Origin: a virus | Taxonomy: Duplodnaviria > Caudoviricetes | IMG/VR virus record: IMGVR_UViG_3300030451_004344 | Span: 1 to 34,940 of that record | Direction: 5' to 3' (one strand) | DNA: 34,940 nt | Shown here: one piece after another, positions 1,246 to 34,940 of the stretch | Layout of the letters: each line of letters opens with the position of its first letter | How positions within the stretch are numbered: the first letter of the stretch is position 1 | Notes under the pieces: generated by a model | What the model saw: the letters and a program-made list of their open reading frames with translations, nothing else | Databases searched by the model: none | What the model was told of the DNA's origin: nothing | Translations under genes and position numbers: made by a program

Positions 1246-1400
1246 TGGAGAAACTAGAAATCCCAATTTGCCTTTATGATGATGGTAAGTATCAAACTGA
1301 ACCCCAATATGACTTTGAACAAATGTCTAACGATTTAGAGGATATTGTACTTGATAAACTTGGTAAGGATATTTGTGTTGTGATAAAGGAGATAGAGTAA
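1245..1400 (+). CDS. Small acidic hypothetical protein (51 aa)
   Basis: GAGGAG RBS and TAATG coupling at both ends. Confidence 0.7.
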   Translation: MEKLEIPICLYDDGKYQTEPQYDFEQMSNDLEDIVLDKLGKDICVVIKEIE

Positions 1401-1645
1401 TGGTAGAAATAGTTGATTTGCCTCAAGATGCTTGTGTAATTTCTGATGTGGATTCAGTACAATTAAAGAAGTTACGTAAGGACTTGGGGTTTAACCAAGA
1501 ACAGATGGCCAAGGCTTTAGGTCTTTCTGGTAAGCATTATATTTCAATGCTAGAGAGTGGTAAGTATAAGTTTACACCATCTGTTACGAAGTGTATGGAG
1601 TATATTAGAGTCCTATTAGAATTAGGACATAGAATCAATCTGTAG
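1400..1645 (+). CDS. XRE/Cro-family helix-turn-helix regulator
   Basis: LKKLRKDLGFNQEQMAKALGLSGKHYISMLESGK is a typical HTH_3 pattern; AAGGAG RBS and TAATG start at 1400. Confidence 0.88.
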   Translation: MVEIVDLPQDACVISDVDSVQLKKLRKDLGFNQEQMAKALGLSGKHYISMLESGKYKFTPSVTKCMEYIRVLLELGHRINL

Positions 1646-4861: not shown

Positions 4862-5030
4862 GATGTTTTTTCCCTACTATCGCTTTTGCACACTTCAAAC
4901 ATATTCTTTCTGATACGACACTCCCAGGATTGATATACATATCCATCCATCGATACCACGTTGTGTTTGATGATTGACCACAAGATAAACACTTATTTAC
5001 TCCCTTTTTGAGCTTTATCATTCTCTTCAT
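4845..5030 (-). CDS. Small zinc-finger protein
   Basis: CLSC...CLKC. Confidence 0.65.
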   Translation of the reverse strand: MKRMIKLKKGVNKCLSCGQSSNTTWYRWMDMYINPGSVVSERICLKCAKAIVGKKHLDELD

Positions 5031-5354: not shown

Positions 5355-6140
5355 CTATGCGACCTTTTTTTTTAGTTTAAGAGCCATTGCTTTTAAGTCT
5401 GGTACGTAACCTTCAGACTCTTCACTAGCTTTTTTAACTTGCTCTCTGTAACGAGCCTCACGTGCCTTACGAGCCTTCTCATTACGCTCAATTCTTTCTA
5501 ACTCAAGTTCTTCTTTAGACTTTTGTTTTTTGATAATCTCATCATTATAAACCTCATTCCTTAAATACCTTACCGGGTCTGGCCTATAAGTTTTATCTGG
5601 TTTAGCTTGTACAAACTCTTTAGTATGAGATAATATTTTTGAATGTAGGTCTGGAGATATTTTTAACCACTGCACAATAGCTTGTTTCTTTGTAGTTTTT
5701 TTGTTGTATAACGAATACCATTCCTCAAACACACTCAAGTGTTTTTTATTAATATCTTTATTAACTTCTTTATTAATGGTAGAAGAGTTCTTCGTGGGGG
5801 TCTTTGTCACTACAGCTTTGGGGTATGGAAGACTACTTCCACGGGGTCTTAATATCCTATGTTTAATAGATTTAGTACCTTCTTCATACTCATAACTCAA
5901 ACTTACAAAACCTTTCTTTACTAGAGCAGAAATAGTTGTAGATACTTGTCTTTTGGATATTTGAAAAAAATCAGAAAAATATTTGTTGGTAGCAAAACAT
6001 CCTTTATCACCATCCAACATATAAATCTTATAAAGCATCAATGTCTGGTTGGCCTCTAAACGCTTTGTCTGTCCTTTTTCATTTTTATACGTTAATGAAA
6101 AGGCATCAATTGGTATCCATACTCCATCATTCTTTTTCAT
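5355..6140 (-). CDS. Phage replication initiator (N-terminal winged HTH)
   Basis: GCFATNKYFSDFFQISKRQVSTTISALVKKGFV HTH, low-complexity linker, C-terminal FEEWYSLY..K..KK.A...W...P.RYLRNE.YNDE typical of phage replisome organisers. Confidence 0.85.
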   Translation of the reverse strand: MKKNDGVWIPIDAFSLTYKNEKGQTKRLEANQTLMLYKIYMLDGDKGCFATNKYFSDFFQISKRQVSTTISALVKKGFVSLSYEYEEGTKSIKHRILRPRGSSLPYPKAVVTKTPTKNSSTINKEVNKDINKKHLSVFEEWYSLYNKKTTKKQAIVQWLKISPDLHSKILSHTKEFVQAKPDKTYRPDPVRYLRNEVYNDEIIKKQKSKEELELERIERNEKARKAREARYREQVKKASEESEGYVPDLKAMALKLKKKVA

Positions 6141-6142
6141 AA

Positions 6143-6409
6143 CTATACCCCTTGGTATTTAACGAGTTCACTTGCCCTCTCTGCTGTACAACGTGGGCAA
6201 TTTTTATGTTCTTTCCCTATTCGGGGAATATGTTTTCCATAATAAAAAGTCCTATAAGTACGTATTGAATTAATATAACTGTGCTCATAGGTTTGTTCGC
6301 ATACTTCACAATACTTAATCAGATCATCAGTTTTCTCTGTATGGAAGTTTGTTTCTGTTGTAAGAATATTTGAAAAATATGTTTTGTATGCTGATTTCCA
6401 ATCGCTCAT
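6143..6409 (-). CDS. Zinc-finger hypothetical protein
   Basis: CEVC...CPRC. Confidence 0.65.
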   Translation of the reverse strand: MSDWKSAYKTYFSNILTTETNFHTEKTDDLIKYCEVCEQTYEHSYINSIRTYRTFYYGKHIPRIGKEHKNCPRCTAERASELVKYQGV

Positions 6410-7203
6410 ATATCTAACCTAAATGTATCGGCCAAAGGTGTACGCTGACGTGGCTTACCTAGACCGGTTTCAAAACCTTTATAAAAACGCTTAAACATTT
6501 TATACGTATCACGTACCAACTCTTCATCATATTGATATTCATATGTTTTTTGAACAGATGAGGGTGGTGTATTACGTGTATAATCTTTCTTCGCCCAGAT
6601 GATACCAAGCCTATCAATCTTTCTGTCTTGTGTAGCATCCCATAGCATTTTATAAATTGACAATTGACACTGCATAGATGGTTGATTTTCAACAACTTTA
6701 GATGTTTTGATATCCAACATCCAAAGCTCACCATCTATCTCTGCTACCATATCACATCTACCAGCAAACGGGAACTTGTAGTTCTTTCCTTTTTTGGCTA
6801 ATGAATGCAGTAATTTTTCTGTAACAACAACCTTTGGTTTGTGCAGATTATGCCAAGCTACATAAGATGCTAGTGCTTTCTTGATCTCCACAGATGCTTT
6901 GTAAGTTGGGTAATATCCTTTGCCCTTTATATGGTCCAGAGGATTTGGAGATATCTTAATCTGCTCACCATCTAACATCTTCTCTATACAATCGTGAACG
7001 AATGTACCAACCTCACTAGCTTGACCATTATATTTAGTATGCCTATCATAATCACCTTGTGATTGCTCTATATACCACTTTAAAAGAAATGGTGCAGTAG
7101 GCATTCCATATGCTGGAATGGTTGAAACAGAGGGAAAATAAACTCCCTCTGCAACCTCGTATACTCGCCCATAAGTAGTATCCGGGACTATCCGTGGGTA
7201 CAT
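6406..7203 (-). CDS. PD-(D/E)XK (RecB/Cas4-like) exonuclease, probable annealase partner
   Basis: PSVSTI, GTFVHDCIE, FAGRCDMV, LDIKTS and QLSIY motifs. Confidence 0.88.
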   Translation of the reverse strand: MYPRIVPDTTYGRVYEVAEGVYFPSVSTIPAYGMPTAPFLLKWYIEQSQGDYDRHTKYNGQASEVGTFVHDCIEKMLDGEQIKISPNPLDHIKGKGYYPTYKASVEIKKALASYVAWHNLHKPKVVVTEKLLHSLAKKGKNYKFPFAGRCDMVAEIDGELWMLDIKTSKVVENQPSMQCQLSIYKMLWDATQDRKIDRLGIIWAKKDYTRNTPPSSVQKTYEYQYDEELVRDTYKMFKRFYKGFETGLGKPRQRTPLADTFRLDI

Positions 7204-7856
7204 TATGCTACCCCGTTAGATGGTTCCGATAGAATTGCTCTCTTATAGCCAAGTAAAGTGTTTAGATGCTGAATGTTTTTAGCTGTAGGGGTTTTTAGTC
7301 TTTGGTAGTATTTTATATGAGTTTCAATTTGACCCAAATTATCACAATAAACCTCTTCATATGTCTTACCCTCACCAGCACCACACGGGATGATCAATTG
7401 ATCATTATAAAGAACGTGCCCCTCAGTAGAAAGGGAATCTACCGAGGGTGCACTTGCCTCTTTAGAGATCGGAGAATCGCTTACGGAAGGCAAATCTTCT
7501 CCATCATAAATATAGTGTCCCAAACCAAACATAGCTATACACTTAACCAAACACCTCATCTTTGCTTTATTAATATCAGCAGAAGTAGGATTGGCTATAG
7601 CTTTGTTTCTAAAATCCATAACCGGGAGCCACATTGAACGGCCACAATCACCAATCTGGATTGAGCAGTTAACTGTTACGGTCCCATTCTCTTCATAGTT
7701 GTTGTCATAAAACGTATACGTAGCATTAGGGTACTTCTCCATTAGTATTCCCCAAGCACTTGCCCAAGATAAATAACTTAAACCATTCTTTTCTTTTTTA
7801 AGATTATTACAATCTACCGAGGACAAGGTAGACCAGATTTCACTATAATTATTCAT
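7203..7856 (-). CDS. Sak/DUF1071 single-strand annealing protein (Rad52-like)
   Basis: LSYLSWASAW, MWLPVMDFRNKAI, DINKAKMRCLVKCIAMFGLGHYIYDGEDLP. Confidence 0.9.
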   Translation of the reverse strand: MNNYSEIWSTLSSVDCNNLKKEKNGLSYLSWASAWGILMEKYPNATYTFYDNNYEENGTVTVNCSIQIGDCGRSMWLPVMDFRNKAIANPTSADINKAKMRCLVKCIAMFGLGHYIYDGEDLPSVSDSPISKEASAPSVDSLSTEGHVLYNDQLIIPCGAGEGKTYEEVYCDNLGQIETHIKYYQRLKTPTAKNIQHLNTLLGYKRAILSEPSNGVA

Positions 7857-7994
7857 ATATTCTCCTTAATGTATTTATTAAACGTAATAATTAGTAATGA
7901 AAAGTAAGTATAAGTTAGTTTACGTTACAATACTTTATTTTACTTTTTTTACTTTTTTTGTTGCATACGTAATAATAAGTAAGTAATTTTTAGT
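7857..7994. promoter_or_regulatory. Divergent lysis/lysogeny control region with a sigma70-like promoter and operator-like repeats
   Basis: AT-rich; TTGCAT(7961-7966)-17 bp-TAATTT(7984-7989); 15/16 direct repeat ACGTAATAATWAGTAA at 7882-7897 and 7967-7982. Confidence 0.65.
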
Positions 7995-8846
7995 ATGAAA
8001 TCGGAGAATCATTCAATAAATTTACCTATTGGAGAATTATCTAACCTTACAAACAAAGGGAATATGGGTAAATTATATATAGCAAATTCAGTTAGAGAGT
8101 CTTTACTCTCTAGCACAAAGTCGTTAGTTGAACTTTCCGAAGAAATTAACGTATCAGAAAATACAATCAGAAGATGGGCAAACGGCACCTTTCTCACAAT
8201 AAGAAGAAACAACCTTAATGCATTAGCCATAGCTTTAAACAAAAAAATTGTGTTTAATAATGATACAGTAGAACTTGAAGACATTACTATTCCGACAGAG
8301 ATAGAAACTGATCAGAACCTACAAGGAGACACAATGATATTAAATGCTGAGGAGATAATAAAAGACTTACGTGACGATAAACGTGACCTTCGTGACACAA
8401 TAACAAATTTAAAAGAAGAAAATAAAGCTCTAATCACTACAATGCAATCTATGGAAAAAACAATTGCAAACTTCAAAGAGGAGCTTGAGTCTTGTACAGC
8501 ACAAATGCCACTTTTAGAGCTTGACAAATATCAAAATGTAGTCGATATAAAGGCTGGAGTGTTTATTAATGTTAGTCCATTATATGCAAAAAAATTAGGA
8601 TACACTGTATTTGAGTTAGTTGGTGCTAGTTGGGAAATTGTTACACCTCCAGAAGATAGGCCAATGTGGCAAACAGACATTGAAAGACAATTAGCAGAAG
8701 AAAATAAACCGTGTGTTGTTCCTACTGAATTACAAAATCACAGTGTAAGACTTCTTCATAGGGATGGCCATATTGTCAATGCTGAATGTCAGACCAAAAA
8801 AATATCTAGCGTGATATCAATGAATGAATGTTACTTTAGTGATTAA
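7995..8846 (+). CDS. Putative repressor: XRE-like HTH + coiled coil + C-terminal PAS domain
   Basis: SLVELSEEINVSENTIRRWANG HTH; heptad stretch at residues ~118-168; PAS-like FINVSPLYAKKLGYTVFELVGASWEIVTPPEDR...VRLLHRDGHIV; divergent from the lytic operon and upstream of attP/int. Confidence 0.8.
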   Translation: MKSENHSINLPIGELSNLTNKGNMGKLYIANSVRESLLSSTKSLVELSEEINVSENTIRRWANGTFLTIRRNNLNALAIALNKKIVFNNDTVELEDITIPTEIETDQNLQGDTMILNAEEIIKDLRDDKRDLRDTITNLKEENKALITTMQSMEKTIANFKEELESCTAQMPLLELDKYQNVVDIKAGVFINVSPLYAKKLGYTVFELVGASWEIVTPPEDRPMWQTDIERQLAEENKPCVVPTELQNHSVRLLHRDGHIVNAECQTKKISSVISMNECYFSD

Positions 8847-9043
8847 TGGGTGATAAAGGGACACGTAAAACCGAGATTTAGAAAATAAATTATAGAAGAG
8901 AAACGAAGGTTTTATAGGATTAACAGTCCACTGCTCTAACCAACTGAGCTATACCGGAATAAAAATTTTCTCTTCTTAAAATCGTAAATCACAACTCAAT
9001 TAGTGAGGGGTATTTTACCCCTTAGTGATAGATAGGTGATAAA
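8836..9043. other. attP region with candidate arm-type integrase sites
   Basis: 19/22 direct repeat TTAGTGATnnATRGGTGATAAA at 8836-8857 and 9022-9043 flanking the tRNA fragment. Confidence 0.7.
8917..8958 (-). tRNA. 5' half of tRNA-Asn(GTT); attP identity segment, not a complete tRNA
   Basis: TCCGGTA-TA-GCTC-AGTTGGTTA-GAGC-A-GTGGA-CTGTTAA-TCC; no T-arm or 3' acceptor strand follows. Confidence 0.9.
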
Positions 9044-9055
9044 AAGGAGAATCGT

Positions 9056-9994
9056 ATGTATAAAAAAAATGGTAAATACTACTCTAGCTTTATGTGCAAT
9101 AACTGTTGCAACAAGCAAATAAGAGTTCCACTTTTAAAAGACAAGAAGTTGTCAAAAAACCTTGAAGAAAAATTAAAGTTCGAACACCTATCGGGTCAAT
9201 ATAAAAAACAAATTTATTTGCAAGATGCCCTAAAAACTTATAAAAACTCTAAAAATGACATCACTGATAAGCAAAAAAACATACGTGTTTTTAATGTAGT
9301 AAAGCTATTTGAGTTCGCTAAAGCTAAAAAAATCAAAGATATAACACCAGCTCATTGTGTAGATTATATATTTAGTTTGGGTGATTTAGCAGTATCTACT
9401 GTTAACCGTAAGAAACAATATATCAAGAGCTTTTTTGATTTCTGCATACAGATGGATTGGTTGGATAAGAATCCAGCTCTACGATTAAGACCAGAGCGTG
9501 ATAAGACGGCTAAAAAGAGACGATACTTTAATGATCAAGAAATTAATCAAGTTATGGAATACGCTGGTGACTATAAAGAGTTCTGGACTTTTTTACTTGA
9601 AACCGGTATACGTTGCACTGATGTCTGGTTATTATCAACGGCCAACTTTAATGGTAATATATGTAGGTGGTTTGAGAATAAAACCAAACGATGGATATCT
9701 ATACCTATAAATGAAACTGCAATGGATATTGTAAAAACAAAGAAGGGATTATTGTTTCCACAGTTTGGGACCAATTTTTCTAAACGTAAAGCAGTACAAC
9801 ATTTAAAAAGCATTGTCCCGGATGCTAATCATCATACATTTCGCCACACCTATGCCCAAAGAGCTGGTAACAAGGGGGTACCAAAAGAAATTTTACAAAG
9901 GCTCCTTGGGCACAGTAGTGTAACTACAACGGAAATCTATTTTAACGAATTTAATAATAACGAGACTTTACAAGATTGGGTTAACGAACTATAA
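9056..9994 (+). CDS. int: Tyrosine integrase
   Basis: ETGIR, HTFRH, LLGH and TTEIY catalytic motifs; SAM-like core-binding domain ending NPA; AAAGGAG RBS. Confidence 0.96.
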   Translation: MYKKNGKYYSSFMCNNCCNKQIRVPLLKDKKLSKNLEEKLKFEHLSGQYKKQIYLQDALKTYKNSKNDITDKQKNIRVFNVVKLFEFAKAKKIKDITPAHCVDYIFSLGDLAVSTVNRKKQYIKSFFDFCIQMDWLDKNPALRLRPERDKTAKKRRYFNDQEINQVMEYAGDYKEFWTFLLETGIRCTDVWLLSTANFNGNICRWFENKTKRWISIPINETAMDIVKTKKGLLFPQFGTNFSKRKAVQHLKSIVPDANHHTFRHTYAQRAGNKGVPKEILQRLLGHSSVTTTEIYFNEFNNNETLQDWVNEL

Positions 9995-10168
9995 TTATTT
10001 AAGGATTTCTTTCTTAACAACTTCTTCTACCGTGTCATAGATAGCAGAGATTATCTTCTCTTCTGTCTTTTCTCCAATAATCGGGATATCTACGTTTTCA
10101 TTTAAAGCAGTGACAATTTTATCTTTCATTTCATCATTAAAGATATAATTTGCTATCATTTCTTTCAT
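9995..10168 (-). CDS. 57-aa protein at the end of the lysis cluster (not in ORF track)
   Basis: Manual translation MKEMIANYIFNDEMKDKIVTALNENVDIPIIGEKTEEKIISAIYDTVEEVVKKEILK; ATGA overlap. Confidence 0.75.
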   Translation of the reverse strand: MKEMIANYIFNDEMKDKIVTALNENVDIPIIGEKTEEKIISAIYDTVEEVVKKEILK

Positions 10169-10356
10169 TTACAATTACACTCCATATTTATTAGTTTTAC
10201 TTTTACTTCATCGAGTTCGTCTCGAAGAATCTTGACTTGCTTATCTAAATTATTATCTTTAAACACGTAGTCACTAATACGGTCAATCTTTAATTGATCA
10301 ACAAGAATGCTCATTACTTTAGTGACTATCATCTTTATTACAAATGGTGGTATCAT
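10165..10356 (-). CDS. Small coiled-coil protein, lysis cluster
   Basis: ATGA-coupled ORF. Confidence 0.7.
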   Translation of the reverse strand: MIPPFVIKMIVTKVMSILVDQLKIDRISDYVFKDNNLDKQVKILRDELDEVKVKLINMECNCK

Positions 10357-10774: not shown

Positions 10775-11223
10775 AGTTTATTAGCCTCTAGGTAGTGTTT
10801 AGGAGTTCCTTTCCCACCCTCTGTATTGAAAAATTTCTTCCAGTAATTGGCTCTACCCTCTGGAGTCTTTGGAATTGCTCCCGGTTGTCTGTAATAATAA
10901 ATTCTACACATTGCTATTGCTACTGCTATATTAGATGTTACACTAAATACTGGATCGTCTTCTATATAGCCTAATTTATATAACTGTTCTATAAGAGGTT
11001 TACGGTACGAGATGTAGTTCTCCCAGTTATCATTTATTGTGTTGATTTCAATCTGCCAAAAAGACTTCGCTGGGCCATTCCCCATTTGTTCCAGATGCCT
11101 ATAGCCAGTTTCAGCATTCCCAGTTTCAAATACAAGCTCCATAGCCTCTTTACTGTATGGAATACCAGCATCATCTAGTCTTTCTAACACCTCTACTATG
11201 AGTCCTCTGATTGTTTCCTTCAT
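10765..11223 (-). CDS. Putative endolysin (lysozyme/transglycosylase-like fold)
   Basis: TGNAETG..HLEQMGNGPA.SFWQIE...AMCRIYY...YWKKFFNT.GGKG; adjacent to membrane proteins. Confidence 0.75.
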   Translation of the reverse strand: MKETIRGLIVEVLERLDDAGIPYSKEAMELVFETGNAETGYRHLEQMGNGPAKSFWQIEINTINDNWENYISYRKPLIEQLYKLGYIEDDPVFSVTSNIAVAIAMCRIYYYRQPGAIPKTPEGRANYWKKFFNTEGGKGTPKHYLEANKLWI

Positions 11224-14200
11224 TAATTACCCCTTCTAGCTTTTCTCTGTGCTTTGTTGAATTTACCTAGTAACCTTCTGTAGTTTTTAGTATCTATTGT
11301 TTTACTTGCACGTGCCTCATTTAAATATTTTCTAAACAGTTTTCTGTCTAGCTTTTTATCTTCTGCTACATCAAGCATTTTTTTTGCTTTTTCATATGAT
11401 CTGTAGTCACTCTTCCCTTTGACAAACTGTCTTAATACTGGAATTTTACTAATATCTGGAAGGGTGCCTCTGCCAGTTTCTATTGCTGTAGTTACATTGT
11501 TTGCTACAAACTTTCCAGCACCACCGGTATATGATTCTATGATGTGCTCTATAGTCTCTGGACTTACATCTAAACCAGTTAAATCATACAACCCTTTAGT
11601 TCCACGGTCAATGGTTGGAGAAACACTTTTAAACCCTCTCTCGTAATCCTTAATAGTCTTACCATAATAATTTTTATCTTTCATTATTTTACCACCAAAA
11701 AAGTTTTTATTTTCACTCAACTGTATAGCTGGATCAAATATAGTAGGTGCTAAAAACTGGGATAAACTTCCTCCAGAGATAGGTGCAAAGGCATCTACAG
11801 CATTTTTAGCTGTTCTAGTTATTAACTCGCCATATGTAGTGTCTCCAAAAATAGTTTGTTCTACTGCACCACCAACACCAAAAAACCAGTTCCAACCGTA
11901 AGGCAGTTTTATTGAGAAGGCTTTTTTGTTTGGAAGTAAAATCATAAAATAATTGTCTTTATTATTTTCATCGAACTGGTTCCACTCATCTTCATCCCAG
12001 TATCTATTTAATGCAGACATTAAAAATCCAAAAGCAGTTATACTTGATGCAACTTTTTTACCATTCTTGCTTTTTAAAGCTCTCCATATTCTATTTGAAC
12101 CTTGCATACCAGCATTAGAAAATGTCCATAAAGTATTCATTGCTGTACCCCATTCACCTTTACGGTTAAAGTTTACAGTAAGGTCTTTTGCATAGTGTGC
12201 TGACTTCTTTTTACTTATTCCAGAATCCACTAAATTTTTATAAGTTGATAGACGTACAGCGTTTTCTATTATCTCATTATAATTTTCAATAAAATCACGT
12301 ATTTTTTGTACTGTTGAGTTTCCTTCTTGTGCACGTTTTATATCTTTTTCTATGTCAGCCATTTTTTGCTCAATCGTACCAAAATCTAACCAACCAGCTT
12401 TACCACCATTAGCTTTAAACTCTTCATATATTTTAGCCCACTCGTGGCTACCATCTTTACGCAGTAAACTTCTAATGCCACTCATAGCTAGTTTTATATC
12501 TTTAACAATTTTACGTTTGATATTTTTCTTACCTTCAGATGTCATATTAAGAAGTGCCGTCTGTAGGTCACGCTCAAAGTTTGTTATCATAAACTCTGGA
12601 TTTATGGTAGTATTTATAGCACGATAATATGTGTTGAACTTATTTAAAAATCGCATTGCACCATTCTGTGTTGTAGCATTAAGATTTTTCATAGCTCTTA
12701 ATAAATCTTTATCTCTAATCTTAATTACATATTGATCGCCATTAACATAAGTTTGGAACTCATCATCTTTTAGGTTCGTTGGACTATAGCTAACTTCACC
12801 TTCTTCATTATAAACTGGCTTAAACTTTCTTTTAGTTACATTCCATATTGGTGATTCATTATTTTGTACCATTTTTAAGAATGCATTCCCAACCTTATTA
12901 TTTTCAGCTATATAAACTGCACTTTCATAATCTATAACAGCTTGTATAAGTGGGTTCTGTGCTTTTGATTCTCTACCAAATGCAGACATAATACCAGTAG
13001 ATGTAGTGCTAAAACCTTTTCCAGAAGTGTGTACATATCCATCTTCTTCTAAAAGGCCTTTTAGTGGTACATAGTTTTTAAAATTAGATTTTAAATTTTG
13101 GTAAGTCTCTTTATCTATAAGACCGGCATCTAGTCTAACTTTTAGAGCTTTATTAGTTACTTCTCTGTATAATTCAAGAGCATATTTATGGATACCAGTT
13201 CCACGATATTTTTTTAATATCGCATTTGCATCAGCATCAGTCATACCAGAACCAGTTTCTAACTTTGGATTCTTTTCTTGCATTGCAAGGTTACGCTCTA
13301 TAGCGTGACGGGCATATAAATATTCACCTATATCATCAAGACTGTGACCATCTTTTTTAGCTCTGCTTAAAATAGATTCTTTGCCATCATACACCTTCTT
13401 ACGAAATTTTTCTAACTTTGTTGATACTGTGCCGTGTAGAGTTTCTGCAACTTGAATTGCATCCTCATCTTCTTGTAAGTCTGGAACACTTTCTTGTACT
13501 AGCTTTAAGCGATTTAATTTATCAATAAACCTACGCTCAAATCGTTGAGGTATAGTCATATCAGTTAAGGCATCTAGCTGATATGATTCTTGGCTATCAA
13601 TACTTACAACATTGTCATCAAATACTACATAGTTTTCACTATCACCAAACTGACCACGAACACCACCTTGTGCTGGAAAGCGTATACCATCTATACCAGC
13701 CTCAAGTAAAAATTCAGATGCTTTTTTCTTACTACCATTCATAAGTATAGCTATTAAGGTGTAGACTTCACTTCCTCTTTTCTCAAACTCTTGCATAGAG
13801 TCTTTAAACTGATACACATCAACACCTTCAGCTAGGTGTGCTCTATATTCTGATTTTCTTTTTCGGAGGAGCTTATTAATCTTCTCCATTTGTTCTGGAG
13901 TAAGTGAGTCAGTCCAGCTCATATAATCATAGTCTGCTGGTTTTTTACCTTTATGTAAGGTTACTTTGTATAATGATCCGTTCTTCTTGGTACCACCATT
14001 AACTTCATCTTTTTCAATTGGGATATAATTTCTAGCTACGTCCTCTTTAGATGAAAAATATAGACCAAAGCCATATGCTTGGTTGCCTTCACCAGAACCT
14101 ATTCTGGAACTATCGAATTGATCAAATTTATAGGGGGAGCCGTGAAAGGCTGTTATTTGATAGGATTCTCCCTTTTCGGACTTGTTCCGGTCAGTAGTCG

Positions 14201-17200
14201 GTCGCTGTTTTCGCTCTGCTTTTTCATAGCGTTGAATTGCATTCTGCGTTTCTTCACGAACGGATCGTCCTTGCCATATTTGGCTTCCAGATTTTTGAGA
14301 TTTTCTTTGTATATATTCATCTATATTTTCCCTTCCAACTACTTCAGTAATATAAGAATAAAAGTATGAATCCTCTACATCATTTCTTTTATCTAGTTCA
14401 CGGGCTACATCTTCTAGTTCAGCATTCTTTTCTTTGATATAATTATCTAAAAATTTAGGGTCTTTTAATGACTCTCTAAATTCCATATCATATCGTGCTG
14501 TTATCTCTGGAATTATCTGTAATCGAATCCCAGTATAAAGCCCTTTTTTATTTCTTTTCTCACGGGATAATGTGAACCCATCGTGACCACGACCACGAAT
14601 AAAAGAAACAATACCTTCAACTTCAGATTCACTTAAAGGATTTTTAAATTCAACTTCTATACCCGGACGAGCATTTTCACTGACTTCATTTGCTCTTAAT
14701 ACTTTTGAAAAGAAAGTATCAACTTGATTATTTTCTTTAGATATTTTTAATACTTCATTGTAAAATTCTACTGGAACGTAGCCCTTTTCAACTGTTAGTT
14801 CTGTATCAAATGATTTCTCTTGATCTGGAATAACCTCTCCAGAATCATCTAAATATGTGTATAGACCTTTGGAGTCTTCATAGCGAATAGCCCTAATGTT
14901 ATTATCTTTAGAGGCTACAGCTTTTAAGCGTTCTCTGGCTTTTTCAATATTGACTTTTGTTGGTTCTTCAAGTTGTTGAATTGAGTGACCTACTTGTTGT
15001 CTATCATAATCTCGTGGTTTTGTGCCACCACCTTTATATTTAGGAAGATATTCAACTATAAGATTATCTTCAAAACTTCCACCTTCACCAGAGACAGTAG
15101 TCCAGTTATTTTTAGTCCAATTCTCTTTTTCTAAAAACCAATCTACTGCTTGTAGGTCAATAGATTGAGTGTCCTCAAAGCCTTCAACTCCCATTTCTTT
15201 TAATTTTTGTTCTGCATATTTATAAGCATCTCCACCCACACCAAATTGACCAGTTATATATGTTCCATCAGCAGAATATTTTCCTTTTACTCCTTGCTCT
15301 GCTTGTACTGGAATTCTTTTCCCACCAGACCTTCTTTGCCAAGCCCTTGCTGACCAGACATCTATAGTAGCGTGATCAGATTTACCAAGGATATTTAAAG
15401 CAAAGTTTTTTGCTTTAGGAGATGATCCCGGTTCAGTTAAAATCCATCTACTTGCTAGTACATCTAATACTGCTGGAGAATTAGTTCCATATTTAGCTCC
15501 ATTAGATTTTTCTGGGACTGGTCCTTTATATTTAGAAGGAACACCACCATCTTCAATATATTGTACATATTGCTGAACGATGTCATCATAACCACCTTTA
15601 TTAAAAGTCTCTAAGGCTTCAAGAGCATTTTTAAAATTATCCGATACTGGAGTTTGGGGAGAAGTCGCTCCCAATAGTTCTCCAAATATTTGAGTTTGAC
15701 CACCGAATTGTTGATGAATTTTAGCTTTTAAAGCACTATACCAAGTTGCTTGTTCAATAATAGCTTGAGCATTCTTATCACCAGCCTTTGCTCTTTCTGC
15801 TACTTCAATAAAATCATTAACAGCTTTCTTCCCTAAACTGGTAACCATTCGCTTATATACTGGAGATTTTTTATTGGGTGTCTTTCCTTTATATTGCTGA
15901 AAAGTATAGGGGATTGGTTTGTATTCTACTTTAGGATTTTTCCCAGAAGTATCTACCTTATTAACTTCTAATTTTGCCCAGCCATCATTTACGGGATGTT
16001 TTGATTTATAAAGCTGGACTTTAGATAAGACCTCTTTCTTATTAAAATCAGTTCCCTCAACAGCAGTATTTATTTTTTTCTTTTCAAGCGTACTAAATTT
16101 TACATTCTTAGGGTTTATAGTTTTTCGCTCTGATCGCTCTACTTTTAATTCTTTCTTTAATGAAAATGACTCATCTGTACTGGTAGCCCCTTCACCTACT
16201 TTAGCGTACCCAGCATCTTCCCACATCTTTCTTATTTTAGGATCAATTTTACTTCTGCCGATAATGTTGTTTAGAAACTGCTTAACTCTTTGTAATATTT
16301 TTGCAATTGTGGAGTTCTCATAAAGACCCTCATCAAAATAATATTGAGTGCCTTCTTTTTCGAATAGCTCTTGCTTTGTAAGTGTTTCACCCTCTCTTAC
16401 TTTTTCAGCGTAATATTCCTCCCAAATCGACTTTTCTTCTGAACTGAGGTTACGGTATGCATTTCCATAAAACTCTTCTATAACAGTATCTGGACGGGCT
16501 CCTTTGTATAGGTTAATAAGAACTTGTCCATTCTCTTCTAATGTTGAACCTAAAACTTGTGCTTCTTTAGTATCAGCCTCTAACCCTTCACCTACAAAAA
16601 ATTTGTCTGGATTTTCACCTTTAGCTTTTAAAGTCTCACGTGTTATTGTCCTTACTTCACTAATAAATTGTAATGCAGAATTATTTTCAAAAGCCTCTGG
16701 ATTTTGTTTGGCAAACCTTTCAGCCATATCAAGCGTAACATCTTCAAAGTCTCCGGTATCTCTAGCTCTTTCAATCTCTATACCTATCTTTGATACTTTG
16801 AATTTTTCATCAGCCTTTGATTGTGGTATACCGGCTACCTCTGATATTGAACTAGACCCAGCACCGAGCACTACCCCAGCATAAAATTCTTGACCTAACT
16901 GTGACCAATCAAAATCTTTAAATAGCTCCTTTTCTTCTTGTGTAAGTTGTTCTGCTATTTGTTGATTAAGACCTTGAAAAGCCTCTGTTGTACCTTCCGT
17001 TGCTGATGTTAATAAAACACTTGCAATTCTACTTTTTAAGCCCGGAAAACCTTTTAAAATTCTATCAATACCGGTTCTTTCTAATGAGGCATTTAGAGCA
17101 CCAACAATTAAAGGTATACTTCTTCTTAAATGTTCTGGAACACGTTTACCAGTACGCTCTTCATATTGAAGAATTTCAGACTTAGTTTGCCCACCTTCAA

Positions 17201-17834
17201 TAGCACCCATAAGTAAGGCTCCAGCAAAAGGATTAGCAATAGTTGTTGCAATCATACCACCCATTAGAGGTATATTCTCTCCAGCAACCATAAACAACCT
17301 TTTAGGGTCTAAATAACCAAATATAGACTCTGGGGGTCTGGTAAATCTTCCAGTAGCTGGTTTTGCCTCAATCTCACTAAAATAATTAACTATATCATCA
17401 GCTTTTTCTTTTAGATACTTTTCTCTTTGTTCATCTGTTGTAATGTTTTTCTTGATCTCTTCTGGCATATTTTCAAACATTCCAGATTGATCCATATTTT
17501 GTATAATTGTAGGTATGATATTAACTGCATTCCCTAAAGCTACACCGGCATTTTTAAATCCTCTGGTCCATACATCCCCAACAGAATCAACCTCATCTTT
17601 ACGTCTTAATATTTGCTCTACATCTGTTGCATCTGGCTTTACATCTATAGGCTGTATAGACTCTGGAGATATAATAGGAGAGTAGGGTTTAAATTTAGGC
17701 TCTTCTGGTTTTTGTATTTGAGCGTTGTATTCTGGATATTTTTTTAATATTGAATTTCCAAGAGTATCGTCATCTAAATCATTATACTCTGGGTATTTAG
17801 CTCTTATGCTGGATACAAATTCTTTAAATGTCAT
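11223..17834 (-). CDS. Large polyvalent / DNA-ejection protein (degenerate zincin-like, glycosylase-like, ART-like and LPD38-like domains)
   Basis: 2203 aa; FHGSPYKFDQF...IGSGEGNQAYGFGLYF; ATSPQ...PKAKNF...TIDVW...LQAVDW; KDLTVNFNRKG...IKLPYG...NKNFFG.KI...SPETIEHIIESYTGG. Confidence 0.85.
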   Translation of the reverse strand: MTFKEFVSSIRAKYPEYNDLDDDTLGNSILKKYPEYNAQIQKPEEPKFKPYSPIISPESIQPIDVKPDATDVEQILRRKDEVDSVGDVWTRGFKNAGVALGNAVNIIPTIIQNMDQSGMFENMPEEIKKNITTDEQREKYLKEKADDIVNYFSEIEAKPATGRFTRPPESIFGYLDPKRLFMVAGENIPLMGGMIATTIANPFAGALLMGAIEGGQTKSEILQYEERTGKRVPEHLRRSIPLIVGALNASLERTGIDRILKGFPGLKSRIASVLLTSATEGTTEAFQGLNQQIAEQLTQEEKELFKDFDWSQLGQEFYAGVVLGAGSSSISEVAGIPQSKADEKFKVSKIGIEIERARDTGDFEDVTLDMAERFAKQNPEAFENNSALQFISEVRTITRETLKAKGENPDKFFVGEGLEADTKEAQVLGSTLEENGQVLINLYKGARPDTVIEEFYGNAYRNLSSEEKSIWEEYYAEKVREGETLTKQELFEKEGTQYYFDEGLYENSTIAKILQRVKQFLNNIIGRSKIDPKIRKMWEDAGYAKVGEGATSTDESFSLKKELKVERSERKTINPKNVKFSTLEKKKINTAVEGTDFNKKEVLSKVQLYKSKHPVNDGWAKLEVNKVDTSGKNPKVEYKPIPYTFQQYKGKTPNKKSPVYKRMVTSLGKKAVNDFIEVAERAKAGDKNAQAIIEQATWYSALKAKIHQQFGGQTQIFGELLGATSPQTPVSDNFKNALEALETFNKGGYDDIVQQYVQYIEDGGVPSKYKGPVPEKSNGAKYGTNSPAVLDVLASRWILTEPGSSPKAKNFALNILGKSDHATIDVWSARAWQRRSGGKRIPVQAEQGVKGKYSADGTYITGQFGVGGDAYKYAEQKLKEMGVEGFEDTQSIDLQAVDWFLEKENWTKNNWTTVSGEGGSFEDNLIVEYLPKYKGGGTKPRDYDRQQVGHSIQQLEEPTKVNIEKARERLKAVASKDNNIRAIRYEDSKGLYTYLDDSGEVIPDQEKSFDTELTVEKGYVPVEFYNEVLKISKENNQVDTFFSKVLRANEVSENARPGIEVEFKNPLSESEVEGIVSFIRGRGHDGFTLSREKRNKKGLYTGIRLQIIPEITARYDMEFRESLKDPKFLDNYIKEKNAELEDVARELDKRNDVEDSYFYSYITEVVGRENIDEYIQRKSQKSGSQIWQGRSVREETQNAIQRYEKAERKQRPTTDRNKSEKGESYQITAFHGSPYKFDQFDSSRIGSGEGNQAYGFGLYFSSKEDVARNYIPIEKDEVNGGTKKNGSLYKVTLHKGKKPADYDYMSWTDSLTPEQMEKINKLLRKRKSEYRAHLAEGVDVYQFKDSMQEFEKRGSEVYTLIAILMNGSKKKASEFLLEAGIDGIRFPAQGGVRGQFGDSENYVVFDDNVVSIDSQESYQLDALTDMTIPQRFERRFIDKLNRLKLVQESVPDLQEDEDAIQVAETLHGTVSTKLEKFRKKVYDGKESILSRAKKDGHSLDDIGEYLYARHAIERNLAMQEKNPKLETGSGMTDADANAILKKYRGTGIHKYALELYREVTNKALKVRLDAGLIDKETYQNLKSNFKNYVPLKGLLEEDGYVHTSGKGFSTTSTGIMSAFGRESKAQNPLIQAVIDYESAVYIAENNKVGNAFLKMVQNNESPIWNVTKRKFKPVYNEEGEVSYSPTNLKDDEFQTYVNGDQYVIKIRDKDLLRAMKNLNATTQNGAMRFLNKFNTYYRAINTTINPEFMITNFERDLQTALLNMTSEGKKNIKRKIVKDIKLAMSGIRSLLRKDGSHEWAKIYEEFKANGGKAGWLDFGTIEQKMADIEKDIKRAQEGNSTVQKIRDFIENYNEIIENAVRLSTYKNLVDSGISKKKSAHYAKDLTVNFNRKGEWGTAMNTLWTFSNAGMQGSNRIWRALKSKNGKKVASSITAFGFLMSALNRYWDEDEWNQFDENNKDNYFMILLPNKKAFSIKLPYGWNWFFGVGGAVEQTIFGDTTYGELITRTAKNAVDAFAPISGGSLSQFLAPTIFDPAIQLSENKNFFGGKIMKDKNYYGKTIKDYERGFKSVSPTIDRGTKGLYDLTGLDVSPETIEHIIESYTGGAGKFVANNVTTAIETGRGTLPDISKIPVLRQFVKGKSDYRSYEKAKKMLDVAEDKKLDRKLFRKYLNEARASKTIDTKNYRRLLGKFNKAQRKARRGN

Positions 17835-33563: not shown

Positions 33564-33711
33564 AGGTATTATAAGCTCGAATTGGTCTTTTTTGTTGCCT
33601 CGTTCCGTCCAGAGTTAAAATTATTTTAACTTTTTATTAGGATGTAATGTTAAAACCATTATAACTTTCGTAAGCCAACAACGGCAAACAACTAAACGAT
33701 TGGAGAATCAA
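33564..33711. promoter_or_regulatory. Divergent early/late intergenic promoter region
   Basis: AT-rich gap between divergent operons; minus-strand TATAAT at 33568-33573; plus-strand TATAAC near 33660. Confidence 0.5.
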
Positions 33712-34431
33712 ATGAAAAGAGAAACATCAAGTTATTTAGAGAATGACCCAAACTATGTACCATCAGCTAAATCACCAGTAGCACCTAAAAAGAAGAATGG
33801 TATGAAAGTACAAGTAACAAAAAAAGAAATGGAATTTTTAAATCAAATATCAACAAGTGATTTCGCAAACGAAGGCTGGGAAGAGGCAGAAGATGGTGCA
33901 GTGGGTGATTGGGTAGGTGCAGATGGAAAAGTAAACCTTCCAACAGACCAATATAATATGAAAGTTGTTAGGGGTCTTATGTCATCCTTAAAGGAGAAGG
34001 GTGTTATAGAGTTAAGAGGGACAGAAGTAGGTCACGAAGGTCAACCCATAACTTGGGTAAATGTCAGTGTTGAATTTTGTGATATTGAAAATAATTGTTT
34101 AAAAAACTTGGAGGTGGCCAAAGCCACTTCCAGAAAGGAGAATCAAATGGAAGTACAAGCAACTAGAGCATTCACATTAACACCGACACACGAGGACTTA
34201 CTAACGAGATACATAGGAGTAAAAGTTCCGGTAATCTTTGTAGAGTATGGTGTAGAGGGATATAGAGAGACAACCCACAGAGTAACATCTTTTGAGGAGT
34301 TAAATCTGTTGAATAAAAAGTACACCAATGCAACACCTCAAGATGCATTTGTGTTACAAAATCTCTCAATGTTTCCTAATGGTAATGTTGAAAAATTGTA
34401 TGAAATCGCTAACAAACGGGAGGAGGCATAA
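33712..34431 (+). CDS. First early ORF; apparently two genes fused in frame (second start at 34147)
   Basis: GGAGAATCAAATG at 33702-33714 and again at 34137-34149; MKVVRGLMSSLKEKGVIE suggests a winged helix in the first half. Confidence 0.75.
   Translation: MKRETSSYLENDPNYVPSAKSPVAPKKKNGMKVQVTKKEMEFLNQISTSDFANEGWEEAEDGAVGDWVGADGKVNLPTDQYNMKVVRGLMSSLKEKGVIELRGTEVGHEGQPITWVNVSVEFCDIENNCLKNLEVAKATSRKENQMEVQATRAFTLTPTHEDLLTRYIGVKVPVIFVEYGVEGYRETTHRVTSFEELNLLNKKYTNATPQDAFVLQNLSMFPNGNVEKLYEIANKREEA
34110..34149 (+). promoter_or_regulatory. Hairpin + RBS element variant (GGAGGTGGC-CAAA-GCCACTTCC-AGAAAGGAGAATCAAATG)
   Basis: Paralogue of 34419-34458 with a compensatory base-pair change and no stop codon in the loop. 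Confidence 0.75.
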
Positions 34432-34462
34432 GCCTCTTCCAGAAAGGAGAATCGAATGAAAA
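34376..34462 (+). repeat. Left cassette flank, copy 2
   Basis: Matches 1-87 with one mismatch. Confidence 0.97.
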
Positions 34463-34791
34463 TAGATAATAAGCAAGATGTAATTAATTGGTTGAAGAGG
34501 TTGAAGGATGACCATCCTCTATCTATACAAGAGATGATTGACTATCTAGAGTCTGATGAGGTTATAAGTAGTAGAACGGATTTAAATGACCCTATTGACG
34601 ATGATGGTTTTATAGCAATAAGGTGGCATCGAGATGATGTTCGTAATCAAGCTGAAGGTATGATGGTTCACCTAACAGATGATGAGGTCGACAAGGTGCT
34701 TTATGATGTCAGAAAATATCACGATGCATCAATCGGTGTTAGTTGGGATAATATCGACTTTCATATTCAACGGCTCGTAAACGAAAGATAG
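34456..34791 (+). CDS. Hypothetical acidic early protein (cassette allele B)
   Basis: 111 aa; W..DDV...LTDDEVDKVL......HDASIGVSWDNI pattern recalled from phage early proteins; no visible similarity to 81-545. Confidence 0.82.
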   Translation: MKIDNKQDVINWLKRLKDDHPLSIQEMIDYLESDEVISSRTDLNDPIDDDGFIAIRWHRDDVRNQAEGMMVHLTDDEVDKVLYDVRKYHDASIGVSWDNIDFHIQRLVNER

Positions 34792-34794
34792 ACT

Positions 34795-34940
34795 AAATAG
34801 TCGAAACCCCTTCGGGGGTCTGCAAGGATTGGTCACCTTGTACTGATGAGACAGACCGACAACTTAAATAGGAGAATCAAAATGTCAGAACGATGCGAAG
34901 AAATATACGATTACTTGGTTGACTTTGGTATAGCAACCGA
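34795..34940 (+). repeat. Right cassette flank, copy 2, including the truncated start (34882) of the 627-815 gene
   Basis: Matches 540-685 with one mismatch. Confidence 0.97.
34800..34859 (+). ncRNA. Type II hammerhead ribozyme, second occurrence; predicted cleavage after 34820
   Basis: Identical to 545-604. Confidence 0.93.

Follow-up and report, generated by a model that had tools for sequence, protein, structure and literature searches.

The window, by which we mean the whole stretch of DNA analyzed (34,940 nucleotides), is an entire virus record, estimated to be 98% complete, and it encodes an SU10/P22-like portal, a terminase and a polyvalent protein of 2203 residues (Pfam/PHROG). The polyvalent protein (11223-17834, minus strand) has LPD38 and DUF7178 matches and an ART-PolyVal match below the cut-off. 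The gene considered here (7995-8846) stands between a leftward early operon and an integrase; this region, together with a second regulator gene elsewhere in the record, contains the following features.

1373..1645, plus strand: second small XRE HTH gene, 90 residues from a TTG start, a rival or partner regulator (above the HTH_3 cut-off)
5355..7856, minus strand: start of the divergent early operon, with Sak annealase, exonuclease, an 88-residue ORF and replication initiator (Pfam/PHROG)
7857..7994, no strand: divergent control region of 138 nucleotides between Sak and the HTH-PAS gene
7882..7897, no strand: candidate operator, copy 1 of a 16-nucleotide direct repeat (repeat search)
7967..7982, no strand: candidate operator, copy 2, 15/16 identical and 85 nucleotides from copy 1 (repeat search)
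7995..8846, plus strand: HTH-zipper-PAS gene, 283 residues, putative immunity repressor (ORF list, profile matches, predicted structure, relatives)
8836..8855, no strand: left copy of a 20-nucleotide repeat flanking attP, likely an integrase arm site, covering the HTH-PAS stop codon (repeat search)
8917..8963, minus strand: attP core, the 5' half of tRNA-Asn(GTT) plus 5 nucleotides of leader (47 nucleotides identical to host tRNA loci)
9022..9041, no strand: right copy of the 20-nucleotide repeat (repeat search)
9056..9994, plus strand: tyrosine integrase (Pfam/PHROG)

Sak, the exonuclease and the replication initiator lie opposite the HTH-PAS gene, and the attP core starts 70 nucleotides past its stop codon and is followed by the integrase, in agreement with an initial annotation that had the gene divergent from the replication operon and directly upstream of attP and int. 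In the integration-dependent immunity of mycobacteriophage BPs, attP lies within the repressor gene, whereas here the attP core lies outside it. The left att repeat takes in the last codons and the stop of the HTH-PAS gene, a possible reason why the C-terminal residues are conserved.

In a scan of 185,579 GTDB genomes, a 40-nucleotide att stretch had exact matches at 10 loci, all of them tRNA-Asn(GTT) genes (four in Neomarinimicrobiota by title, one in TMED198), with identity of up to 47 nucleotides (8917-8963) spanning the 5' half of the tRNA; the half tRNA itself was missed by Rfam and ARAGORN. In the ESM Atlas, the nearest clusters consist of CI_repr plus PAS_3 proteins (796 and 53 members, respectively), and the commonest taxon in both is Fidelibacterota, the taxon being known for just 26 and 1 members. 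From the tRNA matches and the cluster taxa, the host very likely belongs to Marinimicrobia (SAR406), an abundant uncultured marine phylum. The HTH-zipper-PAS family was not found in the five incomplete genomes searched among the 10 with a matching tRNA.

The attP holds the 5' half of a tRNA, whereas the 3' end is usual. The repeat that flanks it was found twice against 0.01 expected, for a pattern derived from the same data, and a 10-nucleotide inverted repeat (8894-8903 and 8967-8976) brackets the core. At two related loci, L018 and L021, the integrase is 82% identical to that of the window and the att-flanking repeats are retained, with a different half tRNA, by eye tRNA-Arg(TCT), at the att place (about 4905-4955 and about 1680-1725, respectively); the 10-nucleotide inverted repeat also appears by eye to be retained there, with matching changes in both arms. 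A contig of 1326 nucleotides aligns from 8917 through the integrase (window 8917-10200) with 32 unfitted letters ahead, a possible integration junction.

Domain architecture of the HTH-PAS protein

An HTH of the XRE type, a helix resembling a zipper and a PAS fold are encoded in the ORF (7995-8846) and follow one another along the gene.

8070..8282, plus strand: HTH domain of the XRE/Cro-C1 type and its beta hairpin, residues 26-96, with the helices of the HTH at 8124-8183 (profiles and model)
8323..8336, plus strand: internal Shine-Dalgarno (SD) sequence (8323-8328) and ATG (8334-8336, Met114), predicted start of a 170-residue HTH-less isoform (anti-SD energy)
8346..8492, plus strand: coiled coil resembling a leucine zipper (residues 118-166), with Asn143 in the core (model and heptad reading)
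8529..8837, plus strand: PAS domain, residues 179-281 (model, Foldseek, VIA, TIGR00229)
8661..8843, plus strand: second half of the PAS, hypervariable, spanning residues 223-283 (comparison with P0003/P0011)

Both the N-terminal HTH and the long heptad coiled coil of the initial annotation were recovered. The ORF matches PHROG 3 'transcriptional repressor' (E 1e-7), and a Pfam scan gave HTH_26 (E 2.8e-4) and HTH_3 (E 1.2e-3), both slightly below the cut-off. The protein was modeled twice with AlphaFold2, from inputs of 10 and 45 sequences (mean pLDDT 76); pTM is only 0.40-0.41 because the domains are unlinked, and the N-terminal 24 residues and the linker 99-116 are of low confidence. The HTH helices are modeled at residues 44-51 and 55-63, followed by the beta hairpin, and residues 118-166 form a single helix of 49 residues (pLDDT 88-93) whose heptad positions (I,L,K,L,I,L,N,L,M,M,I,F,L) are zipper-like, with Asn143 in the core.

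The C-terminal segment had been read as PAS from its consensus motif; the assignment holds, but the motif reads TPPED and not HPED, and N..Y and not N..F. TIGR00229 passes at 30.6 bits (cut-off 22.9), and Pfam PAS_3 falls below its own cut-off on the same protein (E 2.2e-4). Searching with Foldseek, a check proposed earlier, returned 224 PDB matches at E<=0.001, and all among the matches listed are PAS domains; VIA gave PAS at Z 13.8, with an rmsd of 2.4 over 103 residues to FixL, and the top fold match is FG214 (10jx, Z 13.8). The modeled elements (E179-184, E189-193, H195-200, H205-208, H213-216, H219-237, E247-254, E260-269 and E274-281) include the five-stranded antiparallel sheet and the C, D, E and F helices characteristic of the PAS superfamily. 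Sequence searches of the PDB gave weak PAS, HTH and coiled-coil matches only. Among 45 relatives, TIGR00229 matches 18 at E<=0.001 and PAS_3 matches 15, and in the others PAS rests on the alignment. The best BFVD match is A0A516M3Q0 (245 residues). Another BFVD match, from Cellulophaga phi19:1 (R9ZZL0, 9% identity), appears by its length to be gp108, near a lysozyme gene and without a Pfam match, and it was not taken as a case of this architecture.

The earlier reading that S24 autopeptidase and LOV motifs are missing is borne out. Genome record G000 (98% complete) gave 0 S24 matches in a search whose control was positive in 10/14 genomes, neither an S24 nor an M78 protease was found in G000 or G403, and the cleavage dipeptides Ala-Gly and Cys-Gly are absent from residues 91-180. 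The LOV core NCRFL (from GxNCRFLQ, with the photoactive Cys) occurs in 0/45 relatives, and Trp213 occupies that helix. No heme-PAS pocket His is conserved: position 225, which we take to be equivalent to the proximal His of FixL, is Trp in 12/12 closest relatives, and His249, His255 and His259 occur in 2-3/12. None of the pocket residues conserved among these 12 indicates a cofactor, and with no conserved His or LOV Cys the redox cue suggested earlier is not upheld. Some, not all, members of the PAS superfamily bind a ligand or cofactor, and many PAS domains merely dimerize.

Relatives, exchangeable modules and an internal start

Homolog searches gave 10, 17 and 109 matches, and alignment A2 holds 45 roughly full-length proteins picked by hand, multi-domain PAS kinases and short HTH-only matches being excluded. 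Scans of viral contigs with P0001, A1, P0004 and A3 yielded no confirmed loci; only A4 gave loci (six). With tblastn against GenBank phages, P0001 found one weak HTH-only match, and P0020 and the L051 protein found none.

Upstream sequence is available for 11 phage or prophage loci (the window, L002-L007, L018, L020, L021 and L051), and at 11/11 the gene is divergent from an early operon; the loci represent about four related groups and not 11 independent cases. In L051, from a genome of the host phylum, a cro-like gene (phrog_1468, E 5e-8) lies opposite and an integrase downstream; in L047, a PAS-less HTH-zipper gene occupies the same integrase/cro layout, again with a cro-like gene opposite. 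The repressor position assigned by the initial annotation is supported. The integrase is the next gene in only 4/9 loci with a readable next gene, is not next in 5/9, and lies about 11 kb off in one further record.

Within the host phylum, 147/401 genomes have a family match, mostly partial. The best 17 of these loci comprise eight with HTH-zipper-PAS in frame (PAS being recognized by Pfam in four and by motif in the others), three split between zipper and PAS, five without PAS and one other; 12 of the best 17 sit among non-phage-looking genes. The architecture is not phage-specific, then, and is common on Marinimicrobia chromosomes too, and the non-phage contexts of the chromosomal homologs, some beside metabolic genes, imply that it also does other jobs.

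The HTH tree and the PAS tree disagree. In pairs selected by hand from the two trees, P0004/P0009 are 93% identical in the HTH and 18% in the PAS, P0029/P0052 are 100% and 21% identical, and P0018/P0009 are 34% and 88% identical. Compared with P0003/P0011, the window protein differs at 3-5/113 N-terminal positions, at 2-3/52 positions in residues 171-222, and at 29-31/61 positions in residues 223-283, which contain the F helix and the G-I strands. These elements line PAS pockets. Phages have exchanged the HTH and the PAS independently of each other, and the PAS behaves as a separable module. If the ligand were a conserved host metabolite, the pocket would be expected to stay conserved too, so that a ligand that varies, or a protein as partner, is an equally good fit, and we consider a small molecule and a protein or peptide about equally likely as the partner of the PAS.

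The SD before Met114 has an anti-SD energy of -8.0, comparable to those at the starts of Sak and the integrase. No SD precedes Met1, either in the window (7961-7995) or in L005, L007, L018 and L021, and a leaderless start or transcript at 7995 is possible. An energy of -7.2 or lower precedes the zipper-start ATG at 10/12 phage loci, as against 6/115 internal ATGs of window genes and 1/12 chromosomal homologs; the two exceptions, L018 and L021, have the internal Met and lack the SD (energy -1.1). A Met at or near the column of position 114 occurs in 39/45 proteins, although linker identity averages 18%. Translation from Met114 is predicted to give a 170-residue zipper-PAS product without the HTH. 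Truncated partners without the DNA-binding part, such as Tn5 Inh, Id and IPAS, act as inhibitors, and by analogy the HTH-less isoform would titrate the full-length protein. We know of no PAS in the phiC31 repressor. Its likeness to the present gene is that one regulator gene gives several products (three isoforms for phiC31, in the available text of PMC4557955), the isoform here being predicted only.

It is possible, though somewhat unlikely, that the internal SD and ATG are left over from a gene fusion or recombination joint and go unused in translation. Several swaps do break between HTH and zipper (P0018/P0009, P0001/P0010), the SD is missing in L018 and L021, and Gly/Glu codons of an acidic linker mimic SD sequences; yet about four groups of phages retain the SD although the peptide sequence over it and its spacing differ, the chromosomal homologs mostly go without one, and no stand-alone zipper-PAS protein was among the seven matches of a search covering 93-298 residues. 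The internal start and the domain swapping are both additions to the earlier reading of this DNA.

Known regulators of related design

With the S24 repressors of the lambda CI/LexA kind, the protein shares an N-terminal XRE-type HTH, a linker and a C-terminal domain, encoded divergently from early lytic genes and near int; it differs in its zipper and PAS, in the missing S24 domain and cleavage dipeptide, and in having no cro gene in the gap of the window phage (whose first divergent gene is Sak), the Cro-like divergent gene of a lambda-type cI/cro switch being present in the relatives L051 and L047. Besides the repressor of N15, 186 CI and SaPI Stl are non-proteolytic repressors. Repressors of the N15 type are likewise non-cleavable and need an extra factor to switch them off, that of N15 being antirepressed, according to the accessible part of PMC10432266, which sets non-proteolytic repressors aside; here, by comparison, the C-terminal domain is a PAS fold, and no antirepressor was named in the ORF scans.

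The order of XRE HTH followed by a PAS-related C-terminal module is that of MltR/MmyB (PMC3406030, in the text available to us, as for the statements on this family that follow). The MltR module binds myristic acid, and MmyB proteins are chromosomal regulators, mostly of actinomycetes; the linker of MltR spans 11 residues and its extended ligand-binding domain about 200, whereas the protein described here has a 49-residue zipper and a minimal PAS of about 103 residues. FG214 also begins with an HTH, continues through a helical linker and ends in PAS, but it is a bacterial protein with a LuxR-type HTH and bis-His heme, no conserved His being found here; the word 'phage' is absent from the FG214 paper (bioRxiv 10.64898/2026.03.15.711900). 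VqmA-phage of VP882 is a phage-encoded PAS plus HTH protein tied to lysis-lysogeny; it has an N-terminal PAS and a C-terminal LuxR-type HTH and activates qtip and is not itself the repressor, whereas the order here is reversed and the HTH is of the XRE type (bioRxiv 10.1101/2021.04.15.439952, in the sections available). The same sections describe the VqmA PAS as required for dimerization.

The phage HTH-zipper-PAS protein is real, conserved and apparently undescribed, a variant of phage repressors and of XRE-PAS one-component regulators. Searches of a literature set with few of the subscription journals turned up no phage repressor described as carrying a PAS, and no such regulator is among the Marinimicrobia phages reported in the accessible part of PMC4611503. 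The initial annotation did not recognize the architecture from characterized phages; this holds for phage repressors in that literature, but the same arrangement occurs on Marinimicrobia chromosomes, and XRE-PAS proteins are known from MltR/MmyB.

Control region and a proposed lysogeny switch

The 16-nucleotide direct repeat in the control region was equalled in 1/1000 shuffles. It is not retained in L018 and L021, which share the recognition helix with the window protein, and further copies of this candidate operator in the genome do not exceed chance. Conserved, repeated 18-nucleotide palindromes (AGTTAA-N6-TTAACT type) occur in the divergent gaps of five related loci (L002, L003, L004, L006 and L020), and rank first among the operator candidates of the family. 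A promoter scan did no better than chance (four found, 6.9 expected).

We propose, as a reading that we hold about as likely to be right as wrong, that the gene encodes a non-cleavable, CI-like lysogeny repressor dimerized by its zipper, in which the PAS serves as input and the short isoform sets the threshold. The HTH-zipper-PAS protein, having no peptidase, would likely maintain lysogeny as the repressor in a temperate phage of Marinimicrobia; it would be switched off by something binding the PAS, not by RecA-driven self-cleavage. Its zipper would form a parallel dimer that brings one HTH to each repeat half-site region (7882 and 7967), and the dimer so placed would silence the leftward recombination-replication operon. 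The PAS would be an added input, because the zipper suffices for dimers (PAS-less versions occupy the same slot), and its variable second half would determine what it binds; the Met114 isoform, to judge from its conserved sequence, may pair with the full-length protein or soak up the input, thereby setting the threshold of induction. The divergent position (11/11 loci), the cro/int layout of L051, the operator-like repeats, the missing S24 and M78 proteases, the separable PAS with its block of change in residues 223-283, the PAS-less gene in the L047 layout and the conserved internal start argue for this reading. The window gap without cro, the second XRE gene (1373-1645), which could be the repressor, the integrase directly next in only 4/9 loci, the loss of the 16-nucleotide repeat in L018/L021, the missing internal SD at these two loci, the pocket without a conserved cofactor residue and the other jobs of the chromosomal homologs argue against it. 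So does the behavior of VqmA and FG214, both of which bind DNA better with ligand, by the available parts of the two reports (bioRxiv 10.1101/2021.04.15.439952 and 10.64898/2026.03.15.711900), which is the opposite sign to that of a ligand-inactivated repressor.

A narrower version, rather unlikely in our estimate, is a one-protein chemical switch of lysogeny, in which the repressor would read a small-molecule or peptide cue through interchangeable PAS alleles while the HTH-less isoform sets the threshold; phages with a common operator could then respond to different cues.

The initial annotation had called the switch SOS-independent. This does not follow from the missing S24 domain, because an antirepressor could relay SOS: the N15 repressor is antirepressed, and the candidate hosts have RecA in 3/5 and S24 proteins in 3/5. 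The protein might be a repressor whose PAS is a ligand-free assembly domain, joining zipper dimers into higher oligomers or looping the two repeats, with induction left to a separate antirepressor, perhaps under SOS control. We regard this as possible but, on the whole, doubtful. Many PAS domains are established as dimerizing only, that of VqmA is needed for dimerization, the PAS here has no cofactor motif, its first half is conserved while its second drifts, the repeats lie 85 nucleotides apart, and non-proteolytic repressors need other factors. Against these points, the zipper already offers dimerization, and a PAS-less version holds the same slot in L047; the block replacement of half a PAS between near-identical proteins resembles a swap of specificity; and no antirepressor was named when the main ORFs and most of the small ones were scanned with PHROG/Pfam, though many of the small ORFs, indeed most, have no family.

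We think it improbable that the HTH-PAS protein is an auxiliary or activating regulator, in the manner of VqmA-phage or FG214, with immunity kept by the small XRE gene at 1373-1645 or by another gene. That gene does score above the HTH_3 cut-off, and the window gap without cro, the 5/9 loci in which the integrase is not next and the chromosomal homologs adjoining metabolic genes would all suit an auxiliary role; however, the small XRE gene comes at the end of a distant operon made up of small unknown genes and not at a divergent switch, whereas the HTH-PAS gene is divergent from early genes at 11/11 loci and faces a cro-like gene in L051.

Returning to the zipper-dimerized repressor with PAS input, its interest lies in how prophages are induced in nature without DNA damage, an open question in the available text of PMC10432266. 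The PAS-based phage route found in the literature searched, that of VP882, uses a separate receptor and antirepressor, whereas here the repressor would carry its own PAS input. The repressor hypotheses are testable in Escherichia coli without the host, and the system offers a protein that is small and can be expressed, candidate operators, pairs of natural alleles whose differences fall mainly in one half of the PAS, and, by prediction, an inhibitor made by the gene itself. A PAS ligand, if found, would give a first view of signaling in Marinimicrobia, on whose chromosomes the same family occurs.

Several arrangements at other loci are recorded as observations. At L043 (5990-7913), a chromosomal homolog in which the PAS is clear (E 8e-11) lies divergent to the gene of a Rieske oxygenase, a layout typical of small-molecule regulators, and at L048, L049 and L054, in three genomes, a chromosomal HTH-zipper-PAS-like gene stands alone between two tRNA-Ser genes. 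The zipper-PAS junction was compared in four chromosomal orthologs found in 74 genomes, and in three of them (L023, L024 and L025; G343, G227 and G157) an A_AAA_AAG heptamer is followed by a stop; the -1 frame runs into the PAS and by eye matches the fused ortholog L022 (G011), which has one extra A there. The heptamer is a candidate for a programmed -1 frameshift that would yield PAS-less and PAS-bearing forms. In the window itself, a second rightward operon (33700-34940 and 1-1645) of small uncharacterized genes ends in the 90-residue XRE gene and is a candidate location for an antirepressor.
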